Assembly: GCA_000217635.1 (NCBI GenBank)
Contig: CP001817.1
Location: 30,001-62,000 of the forward strand
DNA from: Candidatus Saccharimonadota bacterium
GTDB taxonomy: Bacteria; Pseudomonadota; Gammaproteobacteria; Enterobacterales; Enterobacteriaceae
Reading direction: 5' to 3'
DNA: 32,000 nucleotides
A program made the position numbers and the translations under genes. Positions 4,442 to 32,000 of this stretch are shown one piece after another. Position 1 is the first letter of the stretch; each line of letters begins with the position of its first letter. The notes under the pieces are model-generated. The model was given only the letters and a program-made list of their open reading frames with translations. It searched no databases and was not told the origin of the DNA.

Positions 4442-5322
4442 ATGCATGATAAAATTTTTAATTTAATAGAATGTAAAAAAGATGTAATAAATTTAAAAAA
4501 TAAAATACAGATATCTTTTGAATTTTTTCCTCCGAAAAATACTGCAATTGATTTATTATTTATCAATTCTATAAGAAAATTAAAAAGTTTTAATCCGAAT
4601 TTTTTTTCTGTGACCCACAGTGTAAATACACTTAATAAAAACGATACTTTTATGATTGTACAAAAAATAAGAAAAATGTTTACAGAGATTACTGTGGCGC
4701 CTCATTTAACTAGTATCGGTTATACTACTACTGATTTAAGAAATATAGCAATAAAATACTGGGCTAAGGGAATAAAAAATATTGTTGCTTTACGGGGGGA
4801 TATACCTCTTAATTATAGAGGGGATAAGATCTATGCTGTAGATTTAATAAAACAATTAAAATACATTGCAGATTTTAATATTTTTGTTGCGGCTTATCCT
4901 GAAATTCATCCCGAAGCGGTTAGTTCAAAACATGATTTAATAAATTTAAAAAATAAAATGGATGTTGGAGCAGAACATGCAATTACACAATTTTTTTTTA
5001 GTATAGAAAAATTTTTACGATTTCGTGATAATTGTCATAAAAATCATATATATATTGATATAATTCCGGGTATTTTACCTATATTAGATATTCAACAATT
5101 AAAGAAGTTTTCAAATATGACTAATGTATATATTCCAAAATATATTTTGGATATTTTTAATAAAAATATTATGGATAAAAAAAATGTACATTAATAAGTA
5201 TTAATATAGCTGTGAATATTATTTTACGGTTATATCAAGAAGGCATAAGAAAATTTCATTTTTATACATTAAACCGTTCAGAACTAAGTATAGGTATATG
5301 TCAGCGTTTAGGTTTAATATAA
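4442..5322 (+). CDS. metF: 5,10-methylenetetrahydrofolate reductase, interrupted by a frameshift in an A8 tract (5177-5184); track ORF ends at 5194
   Basis: Residues 1-250 align along E. coli MetF (SFEFFPP, APHLT, IVALRGD, VAAYPExHPEA, AITQFFF, IIPGILP). After the A8 tract the -1 frame reads [45 protein letters not shown], matching the E. coli C-terminus ([42 protein letters not shown]). Confidence 0.9.
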
Positions 5323-6231
5323 TATTTTTATAAGATATTAATTTTTATTTAATATTAAATAAGTTTTAAAAAAGTATTATTTTAAGATTTAAAGATATAT
5401 TTATTATTAAATTTATTATATTAGTCAATTTTTTTTCTCTTTTTTATTAAATAAAATTTATTTATTAAATATTTATAAAAATAAGATTTTTAAAAAATTA
5501 AGTATTTTATTAAGTATTTTAAAAATAATTAATTTTCATTAATATGATAAACATTTAATATTAATTTTGATAATATTAGTTATGTTTATTAAAAAATTAA
5601 AATGTTTTTTTAAAAAAAATAGTAATTAGATAGTATTCCTATTTTTTTGAATATATTATTTAATTTTTATTTGATAAAACTTTATATTCTAAAAATATAT
5701 TCATTATTGAAGATAATAATTTATTATTTCAATGTATTTTTAATTAATAAAAAAATAGAATTATTTATTATGTTAATTTTGATAAATGATTTTATTTATA
5801 TCAGATGTTTTTTCAGAGGTATCAATATTATATAGATCTATTATATTATTTTTTTAATTTTTTTTAAAAGAAAATTTTTTACTTATAAATTGAATTATTT
5901 TTGATAATTTTTAAGTAAAATATAAGTCTATTTGAGATAATATAAATATATTCAATTTTTATCTAGTTTAAATAAATTAAGTATAGTAAAAATAATATAA
6001 ATTACATCATGAAAAATTTAGATTTTTGTTTTTTTAAGATAAGATTATAAATTTATAGAAAATAATATAATTATTATTTTTTATTATGAACATATAATTT
6101 TTTTATATTAAGGTAAACTATTAAATAATTCATTAAAAATTTTTATAAAATAATATTGATTGCTTTTATTATTTTATTTTTTTTCTAGAATTTAGATTCT
6201 TATTTTTTATAGATAATTTATAGGGTAAAAA

Positions 6232-7506
6232 ATGCATATACAGGATAACAAGAAAGGTACAATTGTTTTAGCGTATTCAGGTGGCTTAGATACATCAGCT
6301 ATTATTCCGTGGATTAAAGAAAATTATAATTTTAATGTAGTTGCATTTGTTGCAGATATAGGGCAATCAAAAAAGGATTTAAAAGGTATTAAAGAAAAAG
6401 CTATTATGTCTGGAGCTTTAGATTGTTATATTGCAGATTTAAAAAATGAATTTGTAGAACAATATGTATATCCAATGTTGTCAGTAGGCGCTTTGTATGA
6501 AGGTAATTATTTATTGGGCACTGCAATTGCTCGTCCATTGATTGCAAAAGCACAATTAAATTATGCTAAAAAAATTAATGCGGTAGGATTAAGTCATGGT
6601 GCTACTGGCAAAGGAAATGATCAAGTACGTTTTGAATTAGCATATACTGCTTTAGATCCTACTTTACAAATTATAGCTCCTTGGCGCGAGTGGATTTTTA
6701 GGTCTAGAGAAGATTTATTAAAAATATTTAAAAGAAAAAATATTAGTACCACAGCTAGTATTACCAAGATATATAGTAAAGATGAAAACATTTTTCATAT
6801 TTCTACAGAAGGAGGAATTTTAGAAGATCCGTGGAATACTGCTAGTAATGATTGCTGGAGTTGGACTACTAATCCTCATAATGCACCAAAACATCCTGAA
6901 GAAATCCATTTAAATATTAAAAGTGGACGTGTAATATCAATTAATGGAAAAAAATTGAATCCTTATAAATGTTTAAAAAAATTAAATAAATTAGGATCAA
7001 AACACGCAATCGGTCGTATTGATATTATAGAAAATCGTTTAGTAGGTATGAAATCGAGAGGTTGTTACGAGACTCCTGGAGGCACAATAATTTATCAAGC
7101 ACTTAGGGCATTAGAGCAATTAACATTAGATCGCGAAAGTATACATTGGAAAAATAAAATTGCATTAGAAATGTCAATGTTAATTTATGATGGTCGTTGG
7201 TTTACACCTTTAAGAGATTGCCTGCAAAAATCTTCAGATATTTTTTCACAATATGTTGAAGGAGAAGTTATTATTGAACTATATAAAGGTTCAGTAATTA
7301 TTTTAAAAAAACGTTCATTTAATTCTTTATATTCTTCTAAATTTGCTACCTTTGGAAATGATAAAGTATATAATCAAAAAGATGCTCAAGGTTTTATTCG
7401 ATTACTTTCATTATCTTCGCGTATTAGAGCATTAAAAAATAAAAATAATATTTTTTTGGAGTATATATATGTCGCTTTGGGGTGGAAGATTTACGAAAGA
7501 TTCTGA
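6232..7506 (+). CDS. argG: argininosuccinate synthase (short, type I form); 3' end overlaps argH by 38 nt
   Basis: 424-aa ORF. The N-terminal [12 protein letters not shown]-pyrophosphatase motif is present, along with [31 protein letters not shown] and DGRWFTP. Confidence 0.94.
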
Positions 7507-8866
7507 TAAAAAATTTAAAAATTTTAATAATTCATTGTCTGTTGATTATCGTTTAGTTGAAGAAGACATTATATCTTCCATTGCGTGGTCAAGAATATTA
7601 CTTGATATTGGTATTTTAACTGATATAGATCAGAAATTAATCGAAAAAACGTTATCTCAGATTTTAAAAGATAATATTGATGATACAAACAAAATATTGT
7701 CTTCTCAAGCAGAAGATATTCATAGTTGGTTAGAAACAACGTTGATTAATAAATTAGGTTCTTTAGGAAAAAAATTATATACTGGAAGAAGTAGAAATGA
7801 TCAAATTGCCACGACTTTAAAATTATGGTGTAAAAAGAAATTAAATCATATTTATATGTTAATTATCCAATTACAATCTGATTTTTTAGATCAAGCTACT
7901 ATTCATGTACACACGATTATGCCTGGTTATACGCATTTGCAGAGAGCACAGCCTATTACCTTTGCATTTTGGTGTCTTGCGTATATTGAAATGTTTGAAA
8001 GAGATAGAAAAAGAATCAAACAAGCTTTAAAAAATTCTGATTTTTCTCCTCTTGGGTCTGGTGCAATTTCTGGTACATCTTGGGTAATTAATAGAAAAAA
8101 ATTAGCGCAAATTATGGGTTTTGCAAATTGTACATCCAATGCTTTAGATAGCGTTTCAGATAGAGATTTTATTTTAGAAATTTTATCAGTTGCGTCTATT
8201 AGCATGATGCACTTATCAAGATTTTCTGAAGATTTAATTTTTTATAATTCAGGTGAAACGAATTTTATTGGTTTGTCTGATTCTATTACTTCAGGTTCAT
8301 CTTTAATGCCTCAAAAAAAAAATCCAGATATTTTAGAACTAATTCGAGGAAAATGTAGTGCAGTTTATGGTTCTTTATTTTCTATGTTTACTTTATTAAA
8401 GGGTTTACCTTTATCTTATAATAAAGATTTTCAGGAAGATAAAAAACATTTATTCTCTGCGTTAGATACTTGGGAAGATTGTTTAACAATGGCATCAGTT
8501 GTATTAAAAAATATTACTGTAAATATTGATATATGTAAACGTGCCGCAGAAAAAGGTTATAGTAATGCAACGGAAGTTGCGGACTATTTAGTGAATAAAG
8601 GAGTTTCGTTTCGAGATTCTCATGATATTGTTGGTCAAATTATTCTTGAAGCTATACGTTTAAATAAATCTTTAAAAAATTTAGATATCTCTGTATATCA
8701 AAAATATCATATTAATTTTTCTAATGATATTTATAAATGTTTAACATTAAAATCTTGTTTAGATAAAAGAAATTCATATGGCGGAGTGTCTTTTGAACAG
8801 ACAGAAAAATCTATTTGTTTTATTAAAAAAAGATTAAATAAAATAAAAAATATATTAAAAATTTAA
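7469..8866 (+). CDS. argH: argininosuccinate lyase
   Basis: 465-aa [32 protein letters not shown] aligns with E. coli [47 protein letters not shown] and [12 protein letters not shown] signature motifs are present. GGAG lies 7 nt upstream of the ATG. Confidence 0.96.
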
Positions 8867-8894
8867 TAATGTTTAAAATAAAAATTTTATTTTA

Positions 8895-8929
8895 AATCAC
8901 GCGATATGTATCGCGTGATTATTTTATTA
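8895..8929 (+). terminator. Rho-independent terminator candidate downstream of argH
   Basis: Perfect 12-bp inverted repeat AATCACGCGATA / TATCGCGTGATT (8895-8906 and 8909-8920) with a tiny loop, followed by ATTTTATT. It is a conspicuous GC-containing island in AT-only DNA, 29 nt after the argH stop. Confidence 0.6.
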
Positions 8930-9307
8930 ATAAAATTAATTATAAGTAATATAATTTAATTTTTATAATATATCAAATATTTAATTATTAGATATTATTA
9001 TAATATAATGTAATATTTAAATAATTAATCTATTTAATTATTTTTTTATTAATTAATTATAAAAATTTATTTTTTATAATAAGATATTATATAATTTAAT
9101 TTTTTATTAGTAAATATTTCTTAAATTATGTATTCTTTTTTATTTAAGAATTGTTTAAAGTTATTAACTTTTTATGCTTTTTTTTGATTTTAAAATATAT
9201 TAAGTTATTCTAGAAATATAAAAAAATATATGTTTTTTACTAAATTATTATAACTTTTAATATTCATTGAATATATTTAGAATATTTTTTAATAAAAAAT
9301 TTATATA

Positions 9308-11310: not shown

Positions 11311-13053
11311 CTAAATTTTATGTTTTACAATTTTTTGATTAATTTTCCATAGCTTTTTTTTTTCTGTTATATTTAATCCTTCTTTGCGTTCTTTTGTAAG
11401 AAAATAAGTATATTTATATTCTAAATTTTGTATTTTTATTTTTTTTAACAATTCTAAAAATGTTGGATATATTTTATTTTTTCCAATCATATGATTCCAT
11501 ACAATTAAGTATTTAAATATTTTTTCTAATTTTGAATTTCGATAATATTCAATTAATTGATTAGTTGCAAGATTTGGATTTTTATGTAATATTTTTAGTA
11601 AATCTACAAAAATATTTATTCCGACTACATGAAATTTATTGATTTTTTTAATATTTTTAATTTCTTTTGCTAATTCTGGGTTTTGTAAAAGTAAGCTAAT
11701 TAATAATCGAATAGGTGTTTTTTTAATAAAGGTATTGAATGGTTTTTTTAATGTTTTTAATGTATTACATAATTTTTTAAATTGATAAATATCTAAGATA
11801 CCAGTTTTTTCTCCTAATAATTTTTGTAAATGTATTTTTATATTTTTTCCTGGAATTTTATTAATTAATGGCAGAATTAATCTACTTAATTGAATGCGAT
11901 CTTCAATTTTTCCTAATTGCATATTTTTAGAAATTTTATTAAATAAAAAATGAATATAATATTTCGGATTCTTGTATTCTTTTTTAAAATTTTCCTCTCC
12001 TTCTTTTAAAATTATACTGCTAGGATCTTCATTTTCAGGTAAAAATATAAATTTTACGGTACGATGATCTTTTAAAAAAGGTAAGATAAGATTCAAGGTA
12101 ATCCAGTTAGTTTTTTTTCCAGCATGATCGCCGTCGTAACAAAAAATAATATTATCACTAATTTGAAATAATTTTTTACAGTGCTCTGAATTAATTACAG
12201 TTCCTAATAAGGCTACAGCATAAATATTATATTGAGCTAAGGATAACACATCAAAATATCCTTCAACGACTATTATTTGTTTTGGTTTTAAGGTTTGTAC
12301 TGTTAACTCATAAATTCCATAAAGATTTTTATTTTTATAAAAAATTGGATTTTCCGAAGAATTTAAATATTTTGGTTGATTAATATTATTTAATTTACGA
12401 CCTCCAAATCCATTAATGTTTCCATATTTATCTCTAATTGGAAACATAATACGATTTCTAAATCTATCATAGAATTTTTTTTCTTTATTAATTATAATTA
12501 ACCCTGAATCTAATAAAATAGATGGTTCTAGTTTTTTTTTTTCAATATAGTTTTTAATTTGATTGTTTTGAAATGTTGCATAACCTAATAAAAATCGATA
12601 AATAATTTTTTTTGAAATCCCTCTTTTTAATAGATATTGATAGGCAATAGGATTGGAAGAAAAAAGGTTTTTTTGATAAATATTAGAAATTTCTGATAGT
12701 ATTGTATGTAATTTTTTTTTTATAAAAATAATATTTAACTTCTTTTGTTTTTTTTCTTTAAAAGGAATAATTATATTATGTAATGTGCTAAGCTCGGTAA
12801 TGCTGTCTAAAAAGTTTAATTTTTCGTATTCCATTAAAAAATCAATTGCATTACCATGCACTTTACACCCAAAACAATAAAAAAATTGTTTTTTTATTGA
12901 CAATAAAAGATGGTGTTTTTCATGATGAAACGGACATAATGCTTGGTAATTTTCTCCTATTTTTTTAAGCTTGAATCGTAAATTTATTAAGTCTATTATA
13001 TTAGTGCGTTCAAGTAATTCTTGGATAAAGTATTTTGGAATTTTTCCCATCAT
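11311..13053 (-). CDS. dnaG: DNA primase DnaG (intact ORF, but with an out-of-frame patch in the zinc-binding motif; see findings)
   Basis: 580-aa ORF. MMGKIPKYFIQELLERTNIIDLI aligns with E. coli MAGRIPRVFINDLLARTDIVDLI. CPFH...CFGC..HGNAIDFLM zinc ribbon and a TOPRIM region (VVEGYFDV, CYDGDHAGKK) are present. It lies between rpsU and rpoD as in E. coli. Confidence 0.95.
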   Translation of the reverse strand: MMGKIPKYFIQELLERTNIIDLINLRFKLKKIGENYQALCPFHHEKHHLLLSIKKQFFYCFGCKVHGNAIDFLMEYEKLNFLDSITELSTLHNIIIPFKEKKQKKLNIIFIKKKLHTILSEISNIYQKNLFSSNPIAYQYLLKRGISKKIIYRFLLGYATFQNNQIKNYIEKKKLEPSILLDSGLIIINKEKKFYDRFRNRIMFPIRDKYGNINGFGGRKLNNINQPKYLNSSENPIFYKNKNLYGIYELTVQTLKPKQIIVVEGYFDVLSLAQYNIYAVALLGTVINSEHCKKLFQISDNIIFCYDGDHAGKKTNWITLNLILPFLKDHRTVKFIFLPENEDPSSIILKEGEENFKKEYKNPKYYIHFLFNKISKNMQLGKIEDRIQLSRLILPLINKIPGKNIKIHLQKLLGEKTGILDIYQFKKLCNTLKTLKKPFNTFIKKTPIRLLISLLLQNPELAKEIKNIKKINKFHVVGINIFVDLLKILHKNPNLATNQLIEYYRNSKLEKIFKYLIVWNHMIGKNKIYPTFLELLKKIKIQNLEYKYTYFLTKERKEGLNITEKKKLWKINQKIVKHKI

Positions 13054-13087
13054 ATTATTTAAATTATATGGTATTAGTATGAAAATT

Positions 13088-13561: not shown

Positions 13562-14603
13562 ATGAAAATTTTAGGTATAGAAACATCTTGTGATGATACA
13601 TCTGTTGCTATTTATGATGATCAATTAGGCGTTATTTTTCATAAAACTTGGGATCAGACTAAAATTCACTCTAGATTTGGAGGTATTATTCCAGAATTAG
13701 CAGCAAGATGTCATTTAAGTCAACTGAATTATCTAATTAAAGAAATATTTTTAAAATTATCTAATTATAACATAAAAAAATATAAAAATAATATTATTGA
13801 TGCTGTTGCATATACCGCGGGACCAGGATTAGCCAGTTCTTTATTAATTGGAGCATCTATTGGTTCTTGTCTTGCTTTTTCTTTAGGAATACCATCTATT
13901 TCAATTAATCATATAGAAGGGCATTTATTTTCAGCTATGATCGGACAACGGAATATTCCTTCCTTTCCTTTTATTGCATTATTAATATCAGGGGGTAATA
14001 CACAGTTGATTTATGTTTCTAATTTAGGTCATTATAAAATTTTAGGGAAAACTTTAGATAATTCTGTTGGTAATACATTTGATTATATCGCAAAATTATT
14101 AGGTTTAGGGTATCCGGGAGGTAAAAAATTATCTAGTTTAGCTCAATATGGTATCTTTGGAAAATATATTTTTCCGCGCCCAATGATTCAACATCATAAT
14201 TTAGATTTTAGCTTTTCAGGGTTAAAAACGTATACAAAGAAAATAATTCATGATAGTAAACAAACGTTTCAGGATAAAGCAGATATTTCTCGAGCTTTTG
14301 AAGACGCGATTATTGATACATTAATAATTAAATGTAAACGTGCTATCCAGCAAAAACACTTAAATTCTTTAGTTATATGTGGAGGTGTTAGTGCAAACTC
14401 TACATTAAGAAAAAAGTTTCGTTCTATAATAACAAAACAAGGTGGAAAAATTTTTTTTCTAAAAAAAATTTTGTACAGATAATGCGGCAATGATTGCGTA
14501 CGTTGGATATTTAAGATATAAGTTAGGTTTATATTCTTCTGATTTTTCAATTAAAGTATATCCTCGTTGGTTAATTAATCAGTTAGATAAATTAAATATA
14601 TAA
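13562..14603 (+). CDS. tsaD: tRNA N6-adenosine threonylcarbamoyltransferase TsaD (YgjD/Gcp), interrupted by a frameshift in an A8 tract (14461-14468); track ORF ends at 14482
   Basis: MKILGIETSCDDTSVAIYDD, AYTAGPGL, HIEGHL, LLISGGNTQL, LGYPGG, FSFSGLKT and GGVSAN are collinear with E. coli TsaD. After the A8 tract the +1 frame reads FCTDNAAMIAYVGYLRYKLG...YPRW..., matching E. coli [21 protein letters not shown]...RPRW. It is divergent from rpsU as in E. coli. Confidence 0.92.
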
Positions 14604-16023: not shown

Positions 16024-16695
16024 AGTAATATTTTATAATTAAAAATTTTTATGATTAATAATAAAATAAATATATAATTCTGTTATTAATAAATGACTTT
16101 AATCGAATAAATATTATTAGTGAAACAAAATTTATAATATATTAAAGTTTTTAAAAAAATATAATATTTAATTTTTACTTAATTTTTTTTAAAAATTAAT
16201 ATATTGCATATGTATTTAAATAATTATTGATAATTTTTACGTTAATAAATATATTTTTTGAAAAATATAATTTTATTGTGTTTTAATATAAAATTAATTG
16301 TTATATTTTTAATAAAATAAAAGTAGTATAATATACATGATATGTATGTTATTAAATATAATAAATATTTACGAGTATATAAGTGATGTCTAATGTAAAT
16401 AAATTTTTTGATATTTATCGATTGTAAATATAAATTATTGTTTTTATTCTTGTATTATTAAATAATAATTTATATAAAAAAACTTTTTTTTATTTTTTTT
16501 ATTTTGTTTAATTAAATTTATATCTTTTATAATATTAAAATTAAGATTATATCTTAATATGATTAAAAATTTTTTAATTGTGAATTATTTATTTTTGTTA
16601 CTAAAGTATAATATAGATAGAATTTTTTAAAAAAATAAATTTTGGAATAGAAATTTAATATTATTAGTCATTAATTCTATTTAATGATTTAATAA

Positions 16696-18756
<2,061 letters not shown>

Positions 18757-18760
18757 ATAT

Positions 18761-20622: not shown

Positions 20623-20957
20623 TTATACTTGCATATTTATGATTTCTTGATATGAACTGATTAGTTTTTTTCTTATTTGGATGAATGTTTTAATCCATAA
20701 TCCTTCCTGATTTAATTCAATACATTCATTTTTATAACTTTGATAATTATTTTTATTTATTTTTTTTGATAGATTATTAAATTTTATTTTTTTTATATTT
20801 ATCAATGAATTTTTATTTTTTTTATTTTTTTTTTCAGAAGTTGATTAAATATTTTAAAAAATTTATTTTTTACCTTCGGTTTTATAAAATTATTATTTTT
20901 TATTTTTTTAGTATATATTGGTTGTAGTAGGTTGTTTTGTATATCTTTTACATTCAT
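20623..20957 (-). CDS. fliE: flagellar hook-basal body protein FliE, split into two frames at poly(A) tracts (A10/A8 on the coding strand, 20816-20834)
   Basis: The C-terminal 60-aa ORF ends IQIRKKLISSYQEIINMQV, against E. coli IQVRNKLVAAYQEVMSMQV. Upstream in another frame, GAGGTA + ATG at 20957 opens MNVKDIQNNLLQPIYTKKIKNNNFIKPKVKNKFFKIFNQLLKKKIKKIKIH*. The combined length of about 111 aa fits FliE (104 aa in E. coli). Confidence 0.8.
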
Positions 20958-21134: not shown

Positions 21135-22844
21135 ATGGAAATGAAAAATAAAATTATTGCAAAAGAAGATATTAAATATTGGGATAATATTTTTTTGTTA
21201 TTTATTAAAAAATTTTCAATTTTTTATGATTAGTTTTTCTGTTTTTTTATCTTTTATAATTGTATTTTTTTTATGGTTTAATACAATTAATTATGTTGTG
21301 TTATATAATCATTTGTCTGATAAAGATGAATTTTGGGTAATATCACAATTGCAATCTATGAAAATTCCATATAAATTTAATAATATTACTGGAGCTCTTT
21401 TAGTTCCGGAAAATAAAATACATGAGTTACGTTTTCAATTATTAAATAATAATTTAAATAAAGAAAAAATTTATGGTTTTGATTTTTTAAATAATGATAA
21501 ATTTAATGTAGGTCAATTTAATGAAAATTTAAATTATCATCGAGGATTAGAAGGTGAATTATCAAAAACGTTAATGAATATTTTTCCTATTAAATATGCT
21601 CGCGTACATTTATCTTATCAAAAAGATACTAATTTTTTACAAAAAAAAGAGATACCATCAGTCTCTATTGTAATTACTTTGTACCCTAATACTTGTTTAA
21701 AAAAAAATCAAGTCAATTCCATTATTTCCCTAATTACAGGTAGTATAACTAATTTATCTTCGGATCATATTGTAATTGTTGATCAAAATGGAACTTTATT
21801 AAATCAATTATTTTTAAATAAAAAACGATTTTTTAATAATAATATACAAAAACACGCAGATTTTTTAAAAGATTATTATTGGAATCGTATTAACAAAGCT
21901 TTAAAGCCTCTTTTGGGTTCGAAAAATTTTTTTATTCAAATTACTCCGTATATTATGTCATATGTAAAAAAAAATAATATGATATATAAAAATAAAAAAA
22001 ATAAAAGTAAAGCTGTTAATCTATTAAATTTAGTTCCGGATTATTTAAATAATTTAGGAATTTCAAAAAAAAATAATTCTTTAAAAAATATTTCTTCGCA
22101 TAATATATCTAAAAATATTAATGATGTTAATCTGATAAAGGTAAATAAAAATATTAATTCTAAAGCTATTACTAAAAATTATATAATTAATAAAGAACAT
22201 TCAGGAAACTTCAATACATCAAAATTGATAGATCATAGTCAATTTAATAATAATAACGTATATATGAAAAAAAATCATATAATAACGCGTGATGTAAATT
22301 TTTATGAACGTATATTAAATAATAAATTTATTCATTTTTCAATTAAAATATTAGCGAATTACAAAAAAAATGATTTAGGGATTTTAGTTCCATTGACAGA
22401 AAAAGAAAAAGAAAATATTAAAACGATTATTAAGTCAGTAGTAAACTTTTCACATAAACATGGAGATATTTTAGAAATAATAAATATGTTATTTTTTCAA
22501 CCTCATAAATCTACTCATATGTATTCTTTATTTGATTATAAAAATTTTTTTATATCTTATAAATGGACTTTTGTTTTTTTATTTTTATTTCTTTTTTTCT
22601 TTTTTGTGTTAAGAAAAATTTTTTTAATATATATAAAAAGAAATAATATAATGAAAAAAGAACCATTAAAAAATAAAGATAATTTATCTACAGTTTTTGT
22701 TACACAAAAATTATGTTCTACAGAGGTAAAAGAAAAAAATATTTTATTAAATTCACAATATTTTTTTAAAAATAAAAAAAATTGGATATTGATCCTAAAA
22801 TTATCGCAAAAGTTCTTCGGTTATGGATGAAAAATAAAAAATGA
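21135..22844 (+). CDS. fliF: flagellar MS-ring protein FliF; 3' end frameshifted in an A8 tract (22774-22781), 5' start ambiguous (ATG 21135 + shift, TTG 21157, or ATG 21226)
   Basis: The body aligns with E. coli FliF (NHLSDKDEFWVISQLQSMKIPYKF vs SNLSDQDGGAIVAQLTQMNIPYRF; FNENLNYHRGLEGELSKT vs FSEQVNYQRALEGELART; ARVHL). The track ORF ends ...NWILILKLSQKFFGYG*, but the -1 frame after the A8 tract reads LDIDPKIIAKVLRLWMKNKK*, matching E. coli DNDPRVVALVIRQWMSNDHE. That frame ends in an ATGA overlap with fliG. Confidence 0.9.
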
Positions 22845-23813
22845 AATTAAATAATATTCAAAAAAGTGCGCTTTTTCTGATGTCTATCGATATTAATGAA
22901 GCTGTACAAACCTTAGAATATTTTTCTGAAAAAGAAATTTTTCAATTAACACAAGCTATGTTATCTCTCGATACTCGAGAATCTTATAATATTTCGAATA
23001 TAAAAAAAGAATTTTATTATTTTTTAAAGGAGAATAATATTTCTTATTTTAATATTCAGAAAAATATATCTGTATTAATACAAAAAAGGTTAGGTAAAAA
23101 AAAAGGATGCATATTTTTGCAAGATAGTTTATTAAAAATGTCTATTCAAAAAAAGATTGTTTTTTTAGAAAAATTAGATATTCATGATCTATTTTTTTTA
23201 ATTTTTAAGGAACATGAACAAATAATTACAGTTTTATTAATATATTTTTCTAAACTAATATCAGCTAAATTATTATTATTATTTAATTTTAAAAAACGAT
23301 CTATTTTTTTAATAGGCATAGAAAATTTTATAGCGTTAAGTAAAAAAGGTTTGTTAGAATTTAATAAAATTCTTAGAAATTTAATAGAAAAATATACAAA
23401 ATCTGTGATGATTAAAAAAAATACTAAACATATTGTAGGAATTTTACAGTCTTTTGATAAAAAAAATATAAAAGATATTTTAAATAACATTAATAGGGTA
23501 GATAAAAAATTAGTATATAAAATAAATAGTCTTTTGTTTGATTGGAGTGATTTAATTAATATTAGTGATTATGATATTAAATTTATTATTCAAAATATTG
23601 ATATAAAAATATTATATAAAGGATTAAAAGAAATAGATGATGTTATAATTAATAGATTTTATAAAAATTTTTCAGAGTTACAAAAAAAATATTTTTATAA
23701 AAAAAATATAAAAATAAAAATATTTCTAATGTTCAATTCTCTATATTTAAAAAAAATTATTTAATATTATTAAAAATTTTATAAAATTAGGAAAAATATT
23801 TATAAATCAATAA
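22841..23813 (+). CDS. fliG: flagellar rotor/switch protein FliG; C-terminal about 40 codons spread over three frames by two A8 tracts (23699-23706, 23749-23756); track ORF ends at 23764
   Basis: The N-terminus KSALFLMSIDINEAVQTLEYFSEKEIFQLTQAM aligns with E. coli [33 protein letters not shown]. After the first tract the -1 frame gives NISNVQFSIF (cf. RLSQVENEQKA). After the second tract a further -1 frame gives LFNIIKNFIKLGKIFINQ* (cf. ILLIVRRLAETGEMVIG). Confidence 0.85.
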
Positions 23814-23825
23814 TAGGTAATATGT

Positions 23826-25876: not shown

Positions 25877-25903
25877 AAAAATTTATTAATTTTAGGAAAA
25901 GAT

Positions 25904-26361
25904 ATGAAAAGTAGTTATTTAAAAACATTACTATATTTAAAAAAAAATCTCAATTGTCGATTAGAAAAAATATGTATATAATAAAAGATTATGTAGATAA
26001 AAAAAAAATTTTTAATCAAATATTACAATTAAAAAAATATTATGATGAATATTATAATAATTTATATAAATCTCTTATTCATAAGGGAATTATTCAGTAT
26101 CAAGTGAAAGTATATAGAAAATTTCTATATATGTTACAAACGGTTATTTTAAAGCAACAACAATATATTGCATATTATAATAAACAATTAAGTATTACTC
26201 GAAACTTACATAAAAATATGTATATGTATTTTAAAAAATTGTGTATTTTAGAGTCACATATATATCAAAATATACGAAGAATTATGATATTAAAGGAACA
26301 ACGTATATCTGATATTTTAATTGAATCATTTTCATATATTAAAAAAATATTAAATAAGTAA
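25904..26361 (+). CDS. fliJ: flagellar export chaperone/stalk protein FliJ; 5' end in a different frame, joined through an A9 (25939-25947) or A6 (25965-25970) tract; track ORF starts at TTG 25954
   Basis: AGGAAAAG + ATG 25904 opens MKSSYLKTLLYLKKNLNCRLEKICI* (cf. E. coli ALATLKDLAEKEVEDAARLL). The track frame continues ...LQLKKYYDEYYNNL (cf. LKMLIDYQNEYRNNL). The joined length of about 152 aa fits FliJ (147 aa), and the position after fliI fits. Confidence 0.7.
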
Positions 26362-26540
26362 TGATTTATATATTTATAAAAATAAGAAAAAAAATTTATT
26401 ATATATTGCGTTTATTTTGTATTTTATATTTTATAATATATATTATATAACTCTCTGATTTTTAAAATCTATTTGAAAAACTTTAAAAAATATTATTTAT
26501 TTGCGAGGTAATATGTTAAAAAAAATTTTTTTTAAATGAT

Positions 26541-27494
26541 ATGAAATTAATTTATGATAATATTCAATTTTCATATCAAAAAAGTTCTATAAATTTAGAT
26601 AATAAAAATATTTCAGATTTTCAGAATAGTGAGTTATTAAAAAAATTTTTATTAAATAGAAAAATTTCATCTTTTAAAAATTTATATGATAATTTATCTT
26701 TAATGTTTAAAAATATATTTAAAAAAAATTTATCTATATTATTTGAATTTACTTATTTATATTTTGAGTATAATAATCAATATCATATAAAACAAATATT
26801 AGTAGAAGAAGAAAGTAATATTTTTCAGTTAAGTCATTCAAAAGAATATTGCATATTAATGGTGCCTCATAATTTTTTTTCTATTTGCACTTATGTTTTA
26901 TTTGGGGGGGGTAACTTAGTTATATATAAAAAACATATATATGATAGTAATAAAATTAATAATCATTTAATTATAAATACTGTATTTGAATCTTTATTTA
27001 TAACAATTAATAGTTTTTTAAAAAAATTTTTTTGTTGTTCTATTAAATATATTTTTAAAAATCAATGTACTACAAAAAATTTTTTTAAAAATAATACTTT
27101 AGATGATTATTTGTTTTTTTTATTTCAAGTGACTTATAAAAATATTAAAGATGTGATTAAAATTTGTATACCGAAAAGTATTTTGTATCATATATCTTTC
27201 AAACCGTATCATAATTATCTTATTTTTAAAAAAAATATTAAAAATATTTGGAATAAAAAAATAGAACATAATATAAAATCGTATATCATATCTTTAAAAG
27301 TAAATGTAATAAGTTATACGATATCATTATCTTATTTTTTAAATTTAAAGGTAGGTGATATATTTTACATTAAAATAATAAAAGATGTATTTGGTTTTAT
27401 TAATGGACAATTATTTTTATTAGGAAAATATGGTATATATCATGGTTATCGTTCATTATATTTTAAACAATTTATTAATAAAGAGGATAAATAT
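26541..27494 (+). CDS. fliM: flagellar C-ring protein FliM-like segment; no stop codon before fliN, so it reads through in frame (single 454-aa ORF 26541..27905)
   Basis: VPHNFFSICTYVLFGGGN aligns with E. coli FSPSLVFIAVDNLFGGDG. LSYFLNLKVGDIFYI...INGQLFLLGKYGIYHGYRSLYFKQFIN aligns with LSQILKLNPGDVLPI...VDGVPVLTSQYGTLNGQYALRIEHLIN. No CheY-binding LSQAEIDALL-type N-terminus is seen. Confidence 0.85.
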
Positions 27495-27905
27495 ATGGAA
27501 CAGAAAGGTTCTATCATGGTTTCAAAAGATAATGAATCTATTATAGAAAAAATAATAAATCAAGAACAAAAGAATAATAAAACATGTAAAAATAAATTAT
27601 TGAATCAAGAGAAATTATTAGATAATATCTCTAAATCTAAAAGTAATTTTTTAGATTTTATAAAAAAAATGAAACCTTTTATGGATATTCCTATTGCTAT
27701 TAAAATTGAATTAGGTACAAAAAAATTAAGTTTAAAAAAACTTTTAAAATTATCTGAAGGATCAATCATTCAATTAAATCAAACAGATACAGTTCCATTA
27801 AAAATATTTATTAATAATTATTTCCTAGCATTAGGGGAATTAGTAATGATTAACGAAGAATATGGGGTACGTATTATAAAGCTTATAGAAAACGTAGTAA
27901 TATAA
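27495..27905 (+). CDS. fliN: flagellar C-ring/export-gate protein FliN (own RBS and ATG, in frame with upstream fliM)
   Basis: AAGAGGA (27481-27487) lies 7 nt upstream of ATG 27495. MDIPIAIKIELGTKKLSLKKLLKLSEGSIIQLNQTDTVPLKIFINNYFLALGELVMINEEYGVRI aligns with E. coli MDIPVKLTVELGRTRMTIKELLRLSQGSVVALDGLAGEPLDILINGYLIAQGEVVVVADKYGVRI. Confidence 0.92.
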   Translation: MEQKGSIMVSKDNESIIEKIINQEQKNNKTCKNKLLNQEKLLDNISKSKSNFLDFIKKMKPFMDIPIAIKIELGTKKLSLKKLLKLSEGSIIQLNQTDTVPLKIFINNYFLALGELVMINEEYGVRIIKLIENVVI

Positions 27906-27981
27906 ATTATTTAAATATAAATAAGATTTAATTCACTATATTGATATCATTAAAAATAGAATTTTTAAAGAAAATAAAAAT

Positions 27982-28254
27982 ATGACTAATAATCAATTGA
28001 TATATCATTTTACACACGCGTTACTCTATGTTTTAGTGATTATTTTTGTAATTTTTTTTTTATATAAAACAATCAATAACTTTAAAAATATAGAACAAGA
28101 TGAAGCAATATATATTGTTGATAGAATTTATTTAAATTCTTCTCATTTTATTTGCGTAGTAAAAATCTATAATAAAAATTTTGTATTAGCTGTTACGCCA
28201 TATAAAATTACTATTTTACATATATCCTCAAAATTAAAAAAACACTCTGATTAA
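27982..28254 (+). CDS. fliO: probable flagellar export-gate assembly protein FliO
   Basis: 90-aa ORF between fliN and fliP with one N-terminal TM helix (LLYVLVIIFVIFFLY). IYIVDRIYLNSSHFICVVKIYNKNFVLAVTPYKITILHISSKL resembles E. coli FliO LKISASASLGARERVVVVDVEDARLVLGVTAGQINLLHKL. Confidence 0.6.
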   Translation: MTNNQLIYHFTHALLYVLVIIFVIFFLYKTINNFKNIEQDEAIYIVDRIYLNSSHFICVVKIYNKNFVLAVTPYKITILHISSKLKKHSD

Positions 28255-28334
28255 AGAGATAATCAAAGTTATTTTAAAAAAATATATTAAGTATCAATAA
28301 AACAAATTTTCAATAAATTTAGGTAAAATATTTA

Positions 28335-29075
28335 ATGTTTATTAAATTAACGAGTTTATTTTTTTTTATTGCACTATATCCTTCTATATCGTCTGCTACT
28401 GTTTCTTTTGAATCGATGTTTCATTTAATTAATCAAGGTACAAATTTTTGGACGTTTTCTATCGAAACATTTATTTTTTTTACGTTACTAAGTTTTATTT
28501 CGGCAGGTTTGTTAATGATGACTAGTTTTACTCGGATTATTATTGTATTTAGTTTATTAAGAAATGCATTAGGTACACCATATTCTCCTCCTAATCAAGT
28601 TCTTGTAGGACTTTCTTTATTTCTTACGTTTTTTATTATGTCACCTGTTCTTGATAAAATTTATCATACAGCCTATATTCCTTTTCAGAAAGAAAATATT
28701 AGTTTAGAAATTGCATTAAAACGTTCTATTATCCCTATACATAATTTTATGAAACGGCAAACTAAATCTTCCGATTTATTGCTATTTTTTGATTTAGCAA
28801 AAATTCCATATGTTAAAAAAAAATCACTAATTCCTATGAGAATTTTATTACCAGCTTATATGATTAGTGAGTTAAAAACCGCTTTTCAAATTGGTTTTAC
28901 AATTTTTATACCTTTTTTAATTATTGATTTAGTGGTTGCCAGCGTATTAATGGCTTTAGGTATGATGATGGTTTCACCTTCTACAATTTCTTTACCATTT
29001 AAGTTAATTTTATTTGTTTTAGCCGATGGTTGGCGTTTATTAATTATGTCATTATCTCAAAGTTTTTTAACTTAA
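28335..29075 (+). CDS. fliP: flagellar export-gate protein FliP
   Basis: 246-aa [50 protein letters not shown] and [46 protein letters not shown] are nearly identical to E. coli FliP. Confidence 0.97.
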
Positions 29076-29159
29076 ATGTTTAAGAATAAATAATTTAAAT
29101 TAATTATAGTATTTACGATAGTAAAATTATATATTTTTAATACATAGGATTATATTATA

Positions 29160-29435
29160 ATGAATCAAGAATTTATTATACAATTATTACATTCATCTGT
29201 TAAAGTGGGGTTATTATTGTCTGCGCCGTTTTTACTGGCTACATTAATTAGTGGATTGATTATTAGTATTTTTCAAGCAGTGACTCAAATTAATGAACAA
29301 ACATTATCTTTTATACCAAAAATAATTTCGGTTTTTATTTCAGGAATTATTTTTGGGCCCTGGATGTTAAAAGTTATGATTGATTATATGCAAAATATTT
29401 TTCGTGTAGTACCAAAAATTGTTTTATTAATATGA
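29160..29435 (+). CDS. fliQ: flagellar export-gate protein FliQ
   Basis: 91-aa ORF. ISGLIISIFQAVTQINEQTLSFIPKIISVF aligns with E. coli VTGLIISILQAATQINEMTLSFIPKIIAVF. Confidence 0.96.
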   Translation: MNQEFIIQLLHSSVKVGLLLSAPFLLATLISGLIISIFQAVTQINEQTLSFIPKIISVFISGIIFGPWMLKVMIDYMQNIFRVVPKIVLLI

Positions 29436-30205
29436 ATAATTTTATTGTTAGTATTTTTTTATCATGTATTAATAGTTATATTATATTAATTATGACGCGA
29501 ATTTTTGCATTTTTTTGTTTTTCTTCTATATTTAACAATAAAAATATTCCCGTGGTAATAAAAATTGTATTTACATATAGTATTGCTATTTTTTTATTTC
29601 CATTACTTTCTTGTAGAAATTCTATTAATTTTAATGTTGATTTTTTATTTTTATTAGTATATCAAATTTTTATAGGTCTAGTACTTGGTTTATCAATTCA
29701 GTGTGTATTTGTATGTGTATATTTAACCGGAGAAATAATTAGTTCTCAAATAGGATTATCGTTTTCTATTTTTTTTGATCTTAACGAATATACTCAATCA
29801 TTAGTAATCTCACGTTTTTTAAATATTTTTCTTTTTTGTTTTTTTTATGCTATAGATGGTCATCTTTGGATAATTAAAATTTTAATTAAAAGTTTTAGAA
29901 AATTTCCTTTAATGCAACCTAATATTAATAAAAATTTATTAATATCTTTGTTATATTTTTCTAATGTTATTTTTTTTAATGGACTTTTATTAAGTTTACC
30001 AATTTTATTTTTTTTATTAATAATTCAAATTATTTTAGCTGTATTAAATAGAATGATGCCTCAAGTATCATTATTTTCTATTTTTTTTCCTGCTATTTTA
30101 ATAGCAGGTATTTTTATTTTAAAAACTTTTGTTATATTTTTATTTCCGGTATTTTTTTCATTTTTTGATTATGTCTTAAAATATCTATTATTACTAATGT
30201 CATAA
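29432..30205 (+). CDS. fliR: flagellar export-gate protein FliR
   Basis: 257-aa polytopic ORF with an ATGA overlap to fliQ. TGEIISSQIGLSF, DGHLWII and LAVLNRMMPQVSLFSI match E. coli FliR (AGEIIGLQMGLSF, NGHLWLI, LGLLNRMAPQLSVFVI). Confidence 0.93.
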   Translation: MNNFIVSIFLSCINSYIILIMTRIFAFFCFSSIFNNKNIPVVIKIVFTYSIAIFLFPLLSCRNSINFNVDFLFLLVYQIFIGLVLGLSIQCVFVCVYLTGEIISSQIGLSFSIFFDLNEYTQSLVISRFLNIFLFCFFYAIDGHLWIIKILIKSFRKFPLMQPNINKNLLISLLYFSNVIFFNGLLLSLPILFFLLIIQIILAVLNRMMPQVSLFSIFFPAILIAGIFILKTFVIFLFPVFFSFFDYVLKYLLLLMS

Positions 30206-30301
30206 AAAAATATTTTTTATGAACATCTTATAAATAATTTATTTTATTTTTATTTAGATTTTTTTTAAAGTATTATTAAAGAGTATAATAAAAAAAAATT
30301 T

Positions 30302-30323
30302 GGGGATCTTTCTATAGATCTCC
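30302..30323. terminator. hairpin between convergent fliR and rpmG (candidate bidirectional terminator)
   Basis: GGGGATCT (30302-30309) pairs with AGATCTCC (30316-30323) with one non-Watson-Crick position and a 6-nt loop. It is flanked by A9 upstream, which reads as a T-run on the minus strand after the hairpin. It is one of the few GC-containing spots in the spacer. Confidence 0.45.
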
Positions 30324-30340
30324 AGAAATATCTATCTTTT

Positions 30341-30508
30341 TTACTTTATTTTTTTTTCGATATACATAATATGTTTTTTCAAAAATGGATCATATTTTTT
30401 TAATTTTAGTTTGTCTGGTTTGTTGCGTTTATTTTTAGTTGTAGTATAGTAATGACCACTATTTCCTGAAGATATTAATTTTATATTAATTCGATTATTT
30501 TTTGCCAT
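30341..30508 (-). CDS. rpmG: 50S ribosomal protein L33 (below the ORF-track size cutoff; found by hand)
   Basis: Minus-strand ATG at 30508. Translation gives [55 protein letters not shown] (55 aa), against E. coli [55 protein letters not shown]. Confidence 0.95.
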
Positions 30509-30746
30509 GATTTATCTCTTTTTTTGCATTTATATATTTTTTATATATTTTTTGAATTCCTAGTTTATTAATCATTCGTAATCCTTTTTTTGAAATTCTT
30601 ATTTTAATAAATTTCTTTTCTTGAGGAATCCAAAATCGATGATATTGTAAATTTATAAAAAATTTTCTCTTTGTAGTATTCATAGCATGAGATCTGTGAT
30701 TTCCACGTGTTGTTTTTCTTTTTGTAATTTGACATATTTTTGTCAT
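30495..30746 (-). CDS. rpmB: 50S ribosomal protein L28 (3' end overlaps the rpmG start by 14 nt)
   Basis: 83-aa [62 protein letters not shown] aligns with E. coli [59 protein letters not shown]. Confidence 0.96.
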
Positions 30747-30839
30747 ATTTACTTAATCCTTGGATAAATAAAGTAATAAATTTATTATCGATATATTATT
30801 AATTATTTATGTTCTAATATTGTTTTAAAAATATTTATT

Positions 30840-31373
30840 TTATTTTTTTTTGTTATTAATATATGCATTTAAAATTTCATTTTTCGCACTTTGAGAATTA
30901 TTCCATCCTTGGATTTTTACCCATTTTTTAGGTTCCAGATTTTTATAATTTTCAAAAAAATAGAGAATTTGTTTTTGTAAAGTAATAGATAAATCTTGAA
31001 TTTCACGAACGTCTTTATATTTTTCTGTTAAAGATTGATGTGGTACTGCAATTATTTTAATATCTTTACCTTTTTCATCTTCCATAGCTAACATGCCGAT
31101 TGGTTTACATCGTATGACCGATTGTGATTGAATAGGGTAAGGAGTTGGAATTAAGATATCTAATGGGTCTCCATCTGATGCTAAAGTATGATTAATAAAA
31201 CCATAATTACATGGATAAAACATTGGGGTAGCAATAAAACGATCTACAAATAGCATATTATAATCTTTATGCAATTCATATTTTACAGGACTAGAATAAG
31301 CTGGAATTTCAATTATTCCATATATATCGTCAGGTATTTTTTTTCCGATTGGAATATTATTAATTTGATTCAT
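30840..31373 (-). CDS. ppa: inorganic pyrophosphatase
   Basis: 177-aa ORF. VIEIPA, FVDRF, MFYPCNYGFINHTLASDGDPLDILIPTPYP and KIIAVPH are collinear with E. coli Ppa. Confidence 0.96.
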   Translation of the reverse strand: MNQINNIPIGKKIPDDIYGIIEIPAYSSPVKYELHKDYNMLFVDRFIATPMFYPCNYGFINHTLASDGDPLDILIPTPYPIQSQSVIRCKPIGMLAMEDEKGKDIKIIAVPHQSLTEKYKDVREIQDLSITLQKQILYFFENYKNLEPKKWVKIQGWNNSQSAKNEILNAYINNKKK

Positions 31374-31685
31374 ATTTTTATTCCTATAAAATAAATCTTT
31401 ATATAATGCATACGAAGTACTTATTATTTTATATCATTTGTTAAATAAATAAATATTCAATTAATTAATATAATTTTATAAAATTTTTTTATAATATTCT
31501 TATAATTAATCATAATTAATATATAGAAAATATAAAGTTGATGTTTTATATTAATTTAAAAACATATATAGTAATATAAATAAGAAGTTTTATTTTTGTA
31601 TTTTCTTTTAAAAAATTGATAAATTATATCATTTTTTTTATAAAAAATATTTTTTTATTGTATATATTTTGAAAGGATAACTGGA

Positions 31686-32000
31686 ATGTTATTGTTTGAC
31701 GAAGTAATAAATTTTAAAAAAAAATTATGTGAAATTTTAAAAAAATCTTTATTTTATTTAAAAAAAAGATGTATACATGGTAGTATTGAATTAAAAAAAT
31801 ATATGGTTGTTGTGTTTCAACAAGATACAAAATAATTGATAAAATTGAATTATATGATAATGTTAGTTGTATTATTACAATATATAATCATGGTAGAAAA
31901 GCTTCAGTTTTATGTAATAATATTATGTTTCCTAGTATTTGTAAAGCTATTGATCAAGCTATTGATATGTCTAAATTTACTGAATTAGATCTTTGCTCTT
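31686..32000 (+). CDS. pmbA: metalloprotease PmbA/TldE, 5' part (runs off the right edge); frameshifted in an A7 tract (31793-31799)
   Basis: AAGGA lies 8 nt upstream of ATG 31686. The first frame stops at 31833-31835. After the A7 tract the -1 frame reads IYGCCVSTRYKIIDKIELYDNVSCIITIYNHGRKASVLCNNIMFPSICKAIDQAIDMSKFTELDLCS, matching E. coli [66 protein letters not shown]. Confidence 0.8.

Follow-up and report, generated by a model that had tools for sequence, protein, structure and literature searches.

Single-base frame breaks at A/T runs in the published Buchnera aphidicola (Cinara tujafilina) genome look like homopolymer miscalls

The window, a stretch of 32,000 nucleotides of the record CP001817.1 / NC_015662.1, comes from Buchnera aphidicola (Cinara tujafilina), hereafter BCt. 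Several conserved genes in the window, flagellar genes among them, change reading frame as assembled. The shortened open reading frames are nevertheless annotated as genes in GenBank, including a MetF of 250 aa and a FliF read from a TTG start. The reading frame at 4442-5194 matches this MetF exactly, and the one at 21157-22830 is identical to AEH39635.1, encoded on the 444,925-bp contig. All BCt entries in the protein clusters are GenBank or RefSeq ones, and neither reads nor a second BCt assembly were found. Frame breaks were assessed by tblastn, with protein queries from E. coli and from the nearest relative, the Buchnera of C. confinis (LT667503.1), as well as by three-frame reading and DNA alignments. 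Three-way alignments over 26 genes were built from BCt, the C. confinis Buchnera and the Logan assembly SRR21069242. Both of these relatives are Illumina-derived and equally distant from BCt, with pairwise DNA identities among the three of 0.806, 0.800 and 0.794. The assembly ERZ27237414 served as an additional relative for the site-by-site comparison of frames, and two further Cinara Buchnera genomes (LR217722.1 and LT667500.1) were added to assess gene intactness.

The sequence-only reading had proposed frame breaks in metF, tsaD, fliE, the 3' end of fliF, fliG, fliJ and pmbA, and all of these were recovered by tblastn, three-frame reading and DNA alignments. In metF, an A8 run on the forward strand (5177-5184) is 1 nt shorter than in both relatives (AATAAAAAA / AAAAAGAAA) and moves the gene from frame 2 to frame 1, while the 47 codons 3' of the break remain 83% identical to the C. 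confinis protein. The 3' end of fliF is broken from frame 1 to frame 3 at an A8 run (22774-22781, forward) that is also 1 nt below the relatives (AAAAAGAAA / AAAAATAAA), and LDIDPKIIAKVLRLWMKNKK after the break is conserved. The pmbA (tldE) gene changes from frame 3 to frame 2 at about residue 38, in an A7 run (31793-31799, forward) 1 nt shorter than in the relatives (A8 in the relative L006). The fliE gene on the reverse strand has a coding A10-T-A8 tract (20816-20834) that is 1 nt below three relatives and shifts from frame -1 to -3; the best match is obtained when the A8 (20816-20823) is repaired. For fliJ, the shift from frame 2 to frame 1 could be placed in the first of two runs originally considered, an A9 (25939-25947, forward) that is an in-frame A10 in both relatives.

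Other sites required some revision of position or repair. The tsaD gene is broken from frame 2 to frame 3 at T8 + CT + A8 (14451-14468, forward), immediately upstream of the conserved CTDNAAMIAY segment. Repair by removing a single A had been proposed, but the BCt sequence lacks 2 nt here compared with the relatives, and the loss of 1 nt from each run (T9 to T8 and A9 to A8) would fit at least as well. The fliG gene does contain two shifts, and the second lies as proposed in an A8 run (23749-23756, forward; frame 1 to 3) 1 nt below the relatives. The first shift (frame 2 to 1) had been assigned to the A8 at 23699-23706, which equals an in-frame A8 of L006 in length, and is most likely located in the A5 at 23710-23714 on the forward strand. 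The 5' end of fliF is indeed broken (21190-21199, forward; frame 3 to 1), by one extra nucleotide in T7-G-TT compared with T9 or TTTTTCTTT in the relatives. Judged by the aligned bases, this is not a poly(A) event, and with the extra base beside a G it is not a simple run-length miscall. A break also suspected at the 5' end of fliM was not found. The fliO-like reading frame of BCt contains an in-frame TAA, which suggests some real decay in the flagellar cluster.

Gene termini are affected as well. In argG, for which a weaker frame break had been noted, one nucleotide is missing in the last codons (7441-7445, forward; A5 compared with A6 in both relatives). The stop codon is lost and the reading frame is extended by 20 aa, overlapping argH. 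The T run at 7451-7457 in the spacer is likewise 1 nt below the relatives (T8). Three terminal shifts had not been listed before. One is in secE (2705-2711, reverse), where the three-way alignment shows an insertion in a coding-strand T7 run (T6 in both relatives) that alters the last ~12 codons. A second is a probable deletion of one nucleotide in an A run of argH about five codons before the stop (8845-8850, forward), based on a three-way alignment that is less certain near the gene end. The third is a probable deletion adjoining an A7 run at the 3' end of fliJ (26341-26347, forward), in a low-confidence alignment, which moves the stop by 4 nt.

The reverse-strand gene dnaG carries compensated indels as had been recognized, though in three pairs instead of one. 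The first pair (12889-12920) combines a coding A5 (A6 in the relatives) at 12916-12920 with a coding A7 (A9 in the relatives) at 12889-12895. As assembled, the protein has CPFHHEKHHLLLSIKK where CPFHxEKTPSF is universal. The latter is kept from E. coli to four Cinara Buchnera and is destroyed by the as-assembled frame of BCt DnaG. EKTPSF is a universal primase motif. Between the two indels, TPSFIVN can still be read from the DNA in the original frame. The second pair (12712-12755) consists of a missing nucleotide in a coding A8 (12748-12755) and an additional one in a coding A10 (12712-12721; A9 in the relative L090). The original frame between them reads KTKEVKYYFYK, compared with KTKEAKKYFYI in a relative. 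The third pair (11945-11985) joins a coding A6 (A7 in the relatives) at 11980-11985 to a coding T6 (T5 in the relatives) at 11945-11950. Here, the original frame reads RIQESEILYSF and that of a relative RIKKSEILYAF, with EYKNPKYYIHF in the frame as assembled. By our own count in the alignments, original-frame residues between the pairs match the relatives at 22 of 29 positions, and identity across the gene is 75%.

Gene-internal, lineage-specific indels with a length that is not a multiple of three are heavily concentrated in BCt. Over the 26 genes, we counted 20 in BCt, none in the C. confinis Buchnera and one in SRR21069242. One of the 20 is in truth a change common to both relatives, leaving 19 for BCt, and 19 of 20 on the BCt branch corresponds to a binomial P = 3.7e-9 for equal branches. 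In-frame indels in the same genes were alike (6, 3 and 3, respectively), and the BCt branch is no longer than those of the relatives. This surplus of frameshifting indels is confined to the BCt assembly and absent from the assemblies of the Illumina-derived relatives. The BCt sites are all in frame in the C. confinis Buchnera, SRR21069242 and ERZ27237414, and every gene with a BCt event is intact in LR217722.1 and LT667500.1. Among four relatives compared, none has a break in common with BCt.

Such counts bear on whether the frameshifts could be genuine and unrescued, as the product of erosion by replication slippage at homopolymers. Erosion might be tolerated because only gene ends are truncated or because a shift is compensated nearby, and some events could have arisen very recently or be polymorphic across the many copies of the genome. 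Buchnera genes are reportedly inactivated mainly through homopolymer indels (Moran, McLaughlin and Sorek 2009, Science), and the BCt events share the A/T-run hotspot and the single-base size of such erosion. A bias towards gene ends and compensated pairs would follow from selection on real mutations. The stop in the fliO-like frame fits erosion too, as does the ongoing loss of flagellar genes in Lachninae Buchnera (PMC3246468). However, erosion should affect all lineages and relax downstream constraint, whereas the events are confined to one assembly with constraint unchanged 3' of the breaks. Equidistant relatives with similar run content show only 0 and 1 such events, and the BCt branch has no additional length to account for the difference. 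Intergenic 1-nt indels were not in excess in BCt (16 vs 11 and 19), in a test that is weak because the spacers align poorly, at only 57-86% identity (mostly 60-74%). Erosion would also cost the CTDN segment of TsaD and the EKTPSF of DnaG, both encoded by genes retained in all relatives examined. We consider unrescued erosion very unlikely.

The sequence context of the events is uniform. All 20 BCt events fall inside runs of A or T that are 5-10 nt long. Such runs, counted from 5 nt upwards, cover 13.5% of coding bases (P ~4e-18 for 20 of 20), which upholds the earlier claim that the breaks are tied to homopolymers beyond chance. Events were found in runs of length 5 (three), 6 (three), 7 (five), 8 (seven), 9 (one) and 10 (one). 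Expressed per run, the rate increases from 1.1% at length 5 to 2.1% at 6, 5.8% at 7 and 12.7% at 8. Past 8 nt the rise flattens or reverses, with 5.6% at 9 and 8.3% for runs of 10 or longer. Deletions (16) outnumber insertions (4). The coding-strand split between A and T runs is 16:4 with 14.3:5.7 expected, showing no coding-strand poly(A) bias among the 20 events relative to run content. As T runs are affected at the expected frequency, there is nothing specific to poly(A). The proposed concentration in the flagellar cluster disappears when all events are counted, with 7 of 19 events where the run content would predict ~45%.

Codon-position substitution rates, compared with C. confinis, give no sign of relaxed constraint in the segments that the assembly places out of frame. 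BCt-specific rates at codon positions 1, 2 and 3 are 0.086, 0.067 and 0.104, and C. confinis has rates of 0.101, 0.063 and 0.101 over the same alignment columns. The FliF, FliE and FliJ segments have rates equal to those of the intact relatives, and identity to C. confinis proteins is as high downstream of the breaks as upstream. The downstream frames are open and under purifying selection, in agreement with the sequence-only reading; assembly error predicts the same outcome.

Selection on downstream frames would also persist if the frameshifts were genuine and RNA polymerase added or dropped a base on the run, so that a minority of transcripts yields full-length proteins. Rescue of poly(A)-tract frameshifts by transcriptional slippage in Buchnera and Blochmannia was reportedly described by Tamas et al. 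in PNAS in 2008 and by Wernegreen et al. in MBE in 2010. BCt resembles those cases in having frameshifts in A runs of conserved Buchnera genes with conserved open downstream frames lacking any relaxed constraint. An additional A would mend most breaks, and the clade does contain a conserved poly(A) frameshift, at an A11 in fliJ of two relatives. Among transcription errors in Buchnera A/T runs, the addition of one A is the most frequent, at a rate that grows exponentially with run length (PMC5574713), and Buchnera annotators routinely take such frameshifted genes as functional (10.1101/2022.08.28.505559). Yet retention across related strains or species is not seen, since BCt sites are in frame in the relatives, and slippage does not account for the contrast of 19 events with 0 and 1 on branches of equal length. 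Many tracts measure just 5-8 nt. Taking ~9-10 A or more as the length for appreciable RNA polymerase slippage, only the A9 of fliJ and perhaps the A10 of fliE come near, and 6 of 20 events are in short runs (A5-A6 or T6), on which hardly any slippage would be expected. Events also occur in T runs, at the frequency expected. Each dnaG pair, with essential motifs located between paired shifts, would need two slips at once to regain the conserved frame. Efficient rescue should make the position within the gene irrelevant, yet 12 of 13 uncompensated breaks are at gene ends. Traverse and Ochman found no frame-restored transcript. Slippage rescue, one of two explanations originally offered, is unsupported as a general explanation, and we judge it very unlikely. 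A related possibility is that the run lengths in CP001817.1 are correct and that transcription or translation in the BCt lineage slips unusually easily, even on runs of just 5-8 nt. This lineage alone could then tolerate ~19 frameshifts in 26 kb of coding DNA, with dnaG and tsaD among the genes affected. This strikes us as highly improbable. If true, expression of a large share of the proteome, and of the flagellar export apparatus within it, would depend on decoding errors.

We suggest that the breaks are homopolymer miscalls (probability roughly 0.8), probably of a 454-era assembly thinned by manual curation. The genes are broken in the published sequence, and the breaks look like run-length errors and not like a new mode of expression. 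Systematic miscalling with mostly under-called runs was the second explanation originally offered, and it is favored by 19 events compared with 0 and 1 and by 16 deletions among 20 events. Further support comes from events in A and T runs alike, some only 5-6 nt long, from dnaG codons that stay conserved in the original frame between paired indels even where EKTPSF is scrambled, from unaltered constraint in the out-of-frame segments, and from relatives whose only frameshifts are in A11 and A15 tracts. The breaks would then be errors of the deposited CP001817.1, absent from the living genome. Pyrosequencing reads a homopolymer as a single light signal, hence A and T runs are miscounted, mostly under-counted. 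Published in 2011, the record was probably assembled from 454 reads, a platform for which the support is circumstantial. For bacteriome DNA of C. tujafilina, the same laboratory used 454 FLX and Titanium (PMC4122931), and another 2011 genome by the same first author relied on 454, with Sanger for joins only (PMC3213167). The BCt events resemble 454 miscalls in their confinement to A/T runs, a rate rising with run length, their occurrence on both strands, the predominance of deletions and an excess in one assembly that is absent from Illumina-derived relatives. They are also independent of coding strand and gene function.

The events differ from typical 454 miscalls in being non-random and in lacking an intergenic excess, the latter in poor alignments. 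Uncompensated events lie within 16% of a gene end in 12 of 13 cases (P<1e-5). Random errors alone predict neither this bias nor three compensating pairs in dnaG, and homopolymer miscalling consequently needs an assumed curation filter. Annotators probably repaired errors that visibly split a gene in the middle. Errors likely to escape would be those in the terminal ~15% at either end of a gene, which leave a shortened reading frame that still appears gene-like, those in a tiny and poorly conserved gene such as fliE, and paired changes in neighboring runs that leave the frame open, as in dnaG. Some dnaG pairs may even be frame-restoring edits placed in the wrong run. Natural selection on real mutations could mimic such a filter. 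The T7-G-TT at the 5' end of fliF, the weak intergenic comparison (16 vs 11 and 19) and the in-frame TAA of the fliO-like frame also count against miscalls. A mixture of mostly assembly errors with a few real lesions in decaying flagellar genes, for which the fliF 5' insertion, fliE and fliJ are candidates, could accommodate an extra base beside a G that makes no simple run-length change. The nonsense codon and the real fliJ and fliH frameshifts of relatives would fit as well. However, the events show no flagellar enrichment, and the FliF, FliE and FliJ segments evolve at the rates of intact relatives. Such a mixture appears the least probable of the explanations considered.

Frameshifts in the relatives are restricted to an A11 in fliJ, common to two species, and an A15 in fliH of one assembly. 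The second fliJ tract (25999-26008, forward) is an in-frame A10 in BCt, and A11 and frameshifted in both Illumina-derived relatives. On these alignments, the fliJ A11 would serve as the reference case of a genuine, conserved poly(A) frameshift of the Tamas type, present in the relatives and not in BCt. The A11 and A15 frameshifts are both candidates for the genuine kind.

Work on later genomes of Cinara Buchnera used CP001817.1 / NC_015662.1 as a comparator and as a reference for scaffolding (10.1101/086223). Should the errors be confirmed, protein databases have been seeded with shortened or scrambled entries, namely a MetF of 250 aa, a FliF with a wrong N-terminus and a DnaG without EKTPSF. 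Pseudogene counts, inferences of gene loss and selection analyses including BCt would be biased. The comparison also provides a cheap, read-free recipe to tell genuine poly(A) frameshifts apart from artefacts. It compares, on equal branches, indels that are specific to one lineage and of a length not divisible by three, tests original-frame codons between compensated pairs, and compares codon-position substitution rates 3' of breaks. The true genome would encode full-length MetF, TsaD, FliE, FliF, FliG, FliJ and PmbA as well as a DnaG with a normal EKTPSF. The biology of BCt would then be ordinary, and the interesting case would be fliJ of the relatives, broken at a common A11 tract in two Illumina-derived genomes.

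The frame breaks of Buchnera aphidicola (Cinara tujafilina), hereafter BCt, are best explained by homopolymer miscalls in an old assembly, a reading to which we give a probability of roughly 0.8 based on sequence comparisons. The window has a G+C content of 21-22% and carries rplJ-rplA-rplK-nusG-secE, four tRNAs, metF, argG, argH, rpoD, dnaG, rpsU, tsaD, cca, ligA, two tRNAs, gltX, fliE to fliR, rpmG, rpmB, ppa and the start of pmbA. Breaks were detected by tblastn with proteins of E. coli and of the Buchnera of C. confinis (LT667503.1, loci L005 and L089), and placed by three-frame reading and DNA alignments with three relatives. The E. coli references had diverged too far to be useful for fliG, fliE and fliJ, hence Cinara Buchnera relatives were used instead. 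In the tblastn searches, homology changes frame in metF, tsaD, fliE, fliF (both ends), fliG, fliJ and pmbA. The breaks that the sequence-only reading had proposed were located in metF (A8, a run of eight A, 5177-5184), tsaD (T8/A8, 14451-14468), fliE (A10/A8 on the coding strand, 20816-20834), the fliF 3' end (A8, 22774-22781), fliG as its second shift (A8, 23749-23756), fliJ (A9, 25939-25947) and pmbA (A7, 31793-31799). At all of these sites the BCt sequence is the shortest of those aligned.

Other placements changed on alignment. The first fliG shift had been assigned to the A8 at 23699-23706, which matches in length the in-frame A8 of the Buchnera in the Logan assembly of run SRR21069242 (L006), and the A5 at 23710-23714 is the more likely site. 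The tsaD break stands, but BCt is 2 nt short of its relatives there. A pair of 1-nt deletions (T9 to T8 and A9 to A8) would fit at least as well as the removal of a single A, since the restored FFSKKKF has the relatives' length and the conserved Ser. Among the weaker breaks suspected earlier, the one at the fliF 5' end is present and consists of a +1 at T7-G-TT, the argG break is a -1 in the final codons that removes the stop (7441-7445), and the one at the fliM 5' end disappears on alignment. New events were found in secE (+1, 2705-2711), argH (-1, 8845-8850) and probably the 3' part of fliJ (-1, 26341-26347). In the non-coding argG-argH spacer, a T run (7451-7457) is also one base short, with T7 in BCt versus T8 in both relatives.

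Frameshifting indels, those with a length not a multiple of three, are nearly confined to BCt. In a three-way alignment of 26 genes (about 20.8 kb), BCt and the Buchnera of C. confinis and SRR21069242 (loci L006 and L090) are equidistant (pairwise DNA identity 0.806, 0.800 and 0.794), with BCt on the shortest branch. BCt carries 20 frameshifting indels (16 deletions and 4 insertions) and 6 in-frame indels, compared to 0 and 3 in C. confinis and 1 and 3 in SRR21069242. The 20 include a second fliJ tract that is really a change shared by both relatives, leaving 19 for BCt; 19 of 20 events on one of three equal branches has a binomial P of 3.7e-9. All these genes are intact in two more Cinara Buchnera genomes (LR217722.1 and LT667500.1), and cca, ligA and gltX showed no frameshifting indels in a comparison with C. 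confinis and L007. A BCt-specific mutator is ruled out by the shortest substitution branch and the lack of an intergenic excess, with 16 single-nucleotide indels in BCt versus 11 and 19 in spacers that are only 57-86% (mostly 60-74%) identical.

All 20 events fall within A or T runs that are 5 nt or longer, which make up 13.5% of coding bases (P about 4e-18). The event rate per run rises from 1.1% at length 5 to 2.1% at 6, 5.8% at 7 and 12.7% at 8. Together with the preponderance of deletions and the excess in BCt alone, this favours the earlier suggestion of mostly under-called homopolymers. Coding-strand A runs hold 16 events and T runs 4, near the 14.3 and 5.7 predicted from run content, which argues against poly(A) specificity. 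The proposed concentration in flagellar genes is not borne out (7 of 19 events versus 45% expected), and a flagellum-specific dependence on slippage is thus ruled out.

The frames downstream of the breaks remain constrained. In columns that the assembly places out of frame, we compared substitutions specific to BCt with those specific to C. confinis. For codon positions 1, 2 and 3 the rates were, in order, 0.086, 0.067 and 0.104 in BCt, versus 0.101, 0.063 and 0.101 in C. confinis. Protein identity downstream versus upstream of the break was 83% versus 74% in metF, 65% versus 53% in fliE, 70% versus 75% in tsaD and 61% versus 66% in pmbA. Unchanged rates and downstream identity indicate normal selection on the frames along essentially the whole BCt branch. 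Old unrescued pseudogenes are ruled out; the sequence-only reading had already argued against old pseudogenes. The position of the breaks is not random either. Excluding pmbA, 12 of the 13 uncompensated events scored lie at most 16% from a gene end (35% expected; P<1e-5). Random unfiltered errors give no such bias, so some filter acted on the breaks. Selection against mid-gene frameshifts would provide one if the lesions were real and unrescued or recent, yet the two relatives should then carry similar terminal events and do not, making such lesions very unlikely. Genuine frameshifts rescued by slippage do not predict the bias, because efficient rescue makes position irrelevant.

Slippage rescue is further strained by dnaG, where three compensated pairs were found rather than the single pair noted previously. 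These combine A6 to A5 with A9 to A7 (12916-12920 and 12889-12895), a -1 with A9 to A10 (12748-12755 and 12712-12721), and A7 to A6 with T5 to T6 (11980-11985 and 11945-11950). DnaG reads CPFHHEKHHLLLSIKK as assembled; the motif CPFHxEKTPSF is present in DnaG of E. coli and four Cinara Buchnera. Between the pairs the assembled frame gives unrelated residues, and TPSFIVN, KTKEVKYYFYK and RIQESEILYSF remain encoded in the original frame, with 22 of 29 residues matching the relatives by manual alignment count (gene-wide identity 75%). Rescue would need two simultaneous slips per pair, including one on an A5 run, and we consider slippage very unlikely as the general explanation.

Sequencing errors in runs followed by human curation, the assumed filter, is the reading that accounts for all results. 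Curators would have repaired breaks that visibly split genes but could have missed those that lay near an end of a gene, fell in the very small fliE or were compensated inside an open ORF. The compensating partner in dnaG might itself be a frame-restoring edit in the wrong run. Truncated ORFs are carried as normal genes in GenBank, which fits errors followed by curation: FliF AEH39635.1 is identical to the ORF at 21157-22830 and the 250-aa MetF to that at 4442-5194.

The FliF and MetF identities place the window in the BCt genome CP001817.1, which is reportedly that of Lamelas et al. 2011. We infer a 454 platform; C. tujafilina bacteriome DNA was sequenced on 454 FLX and Titanium in the same laboratory (Manzano-Marín and Latorre 2014, PMC4122931, which also describes HiSeq 2000 reads of this DNA), and another 2011 genome by the same first author used 454 reads with Sanger for joins only (PMC3213167). 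Exact-protein look-ups of BCt FliI, FliF and Ppa returned no independent BCt contig, a metagenome scan with a pattern across the metF tract at any run length had no match, and a genome-collection scan with the TsaD N-terminus recovered unrelated bacteria only. A literature search, which did not cover the original BCt paper, found no statements on BCt sequencing errors.

Three observations count against run-length errors. The insertion at the fliF 5' end does not amount to a simple change in run length. BCt also lacks an excess of intergenic single-nucleotide indels, which, in poor alignments, is mild evidence against a high rate of unfiltered errors. Finally, upstream of fliP, a fliO-like ORF (27982-28326) that has 115 aa in C. 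confinis is interrupted in BCt by an in-frame TAA at 28252-28254 and by another stop close to its 3' end, with similarity returning near the C-terminal end (IKQIFNKFR versus IKKFFNKFR). From the alignment this lesion is of the substitution type, not a run-length change, and some real decay may be mixed in. A mixture of errors and real lesions as the overall account nevertheless seems very unlikely.

Several features of gene content accompany these results. The 900-nt metF-argG spacer (5320-6231) has no ORF of at least 100 aa, falls in the lowest-G+C stretch of the window (15.6% for 4001-6000) and is probably a remnant of lost arginine-pathway genes. The arginine pathway is reportedly truncated in Lachninae Buchnera (PMC4898801). 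Between cca and ligA, relatives carry a minus-strand ORF of 148-156 aa, probably crr, with a weak PTS_EIIA_1 match in one locus (L091). No trace of it was found by tblastn in the BCt spacer (16024-16707), where the gene appears to have decayed or been lost. In BCt and the C. confinis clade, LigA (16708-18756) has 682 aa and includes a BRCT domain; in C. splendens and LT667500.1 it has only 590 aa and no BRCT match. FliM-like and FliN (FliMN_C) regions share one 454-aa ORF (26541-27905) in BCt, C. confinis and SRR21069242 Buchnera; in C. splendens and LT667500.1 they form two separate ORFs, of about 210-234 and 127-130 aa.

Poly(A) frameshifts rescued by transcriptional slippage are an established phenomenon in Buchnera and Blochmannia, reportedly described by Tamas et al. 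2008. Such frameshifts involve long tracts and retention across relatives; the BCt breaks have neither, contrary to the slippage explanation in the sequence-only reading. Transcription insertions in Buchnera concentrate in A/T runs with an exponential rise with run length, and the restored frame is not seen transcriptome-wide (PMC5574713). Slippage rescue is already part of Buchnera annotation practice, as one report indicates (10.1101/2022.08.28.505559). In fliJ, C. confinis (L005:14857-14867) and SRR21069242 Buchnera (L006:7449-7459), both Illumina-derived, are broken at an A11 at the same site, where BCt has an in-frame A10 (25999-26008). Downstream, all three keep an open, conserved frame, and the A11 is a candidate Tamas-type frameshift that is genuinely conserved. 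The fliH of SRR21069242 Buchnera is split into 52 and 160 aa at an A15 tract (L006:5407-5421), which may reflect either a true frameshift or a wrong count of this very long run in the Illumina assembly. Beyond the warning that a reference genome is flawed, and the A11 in fliJ of the relatives, the significance of the BCt breaks is low.
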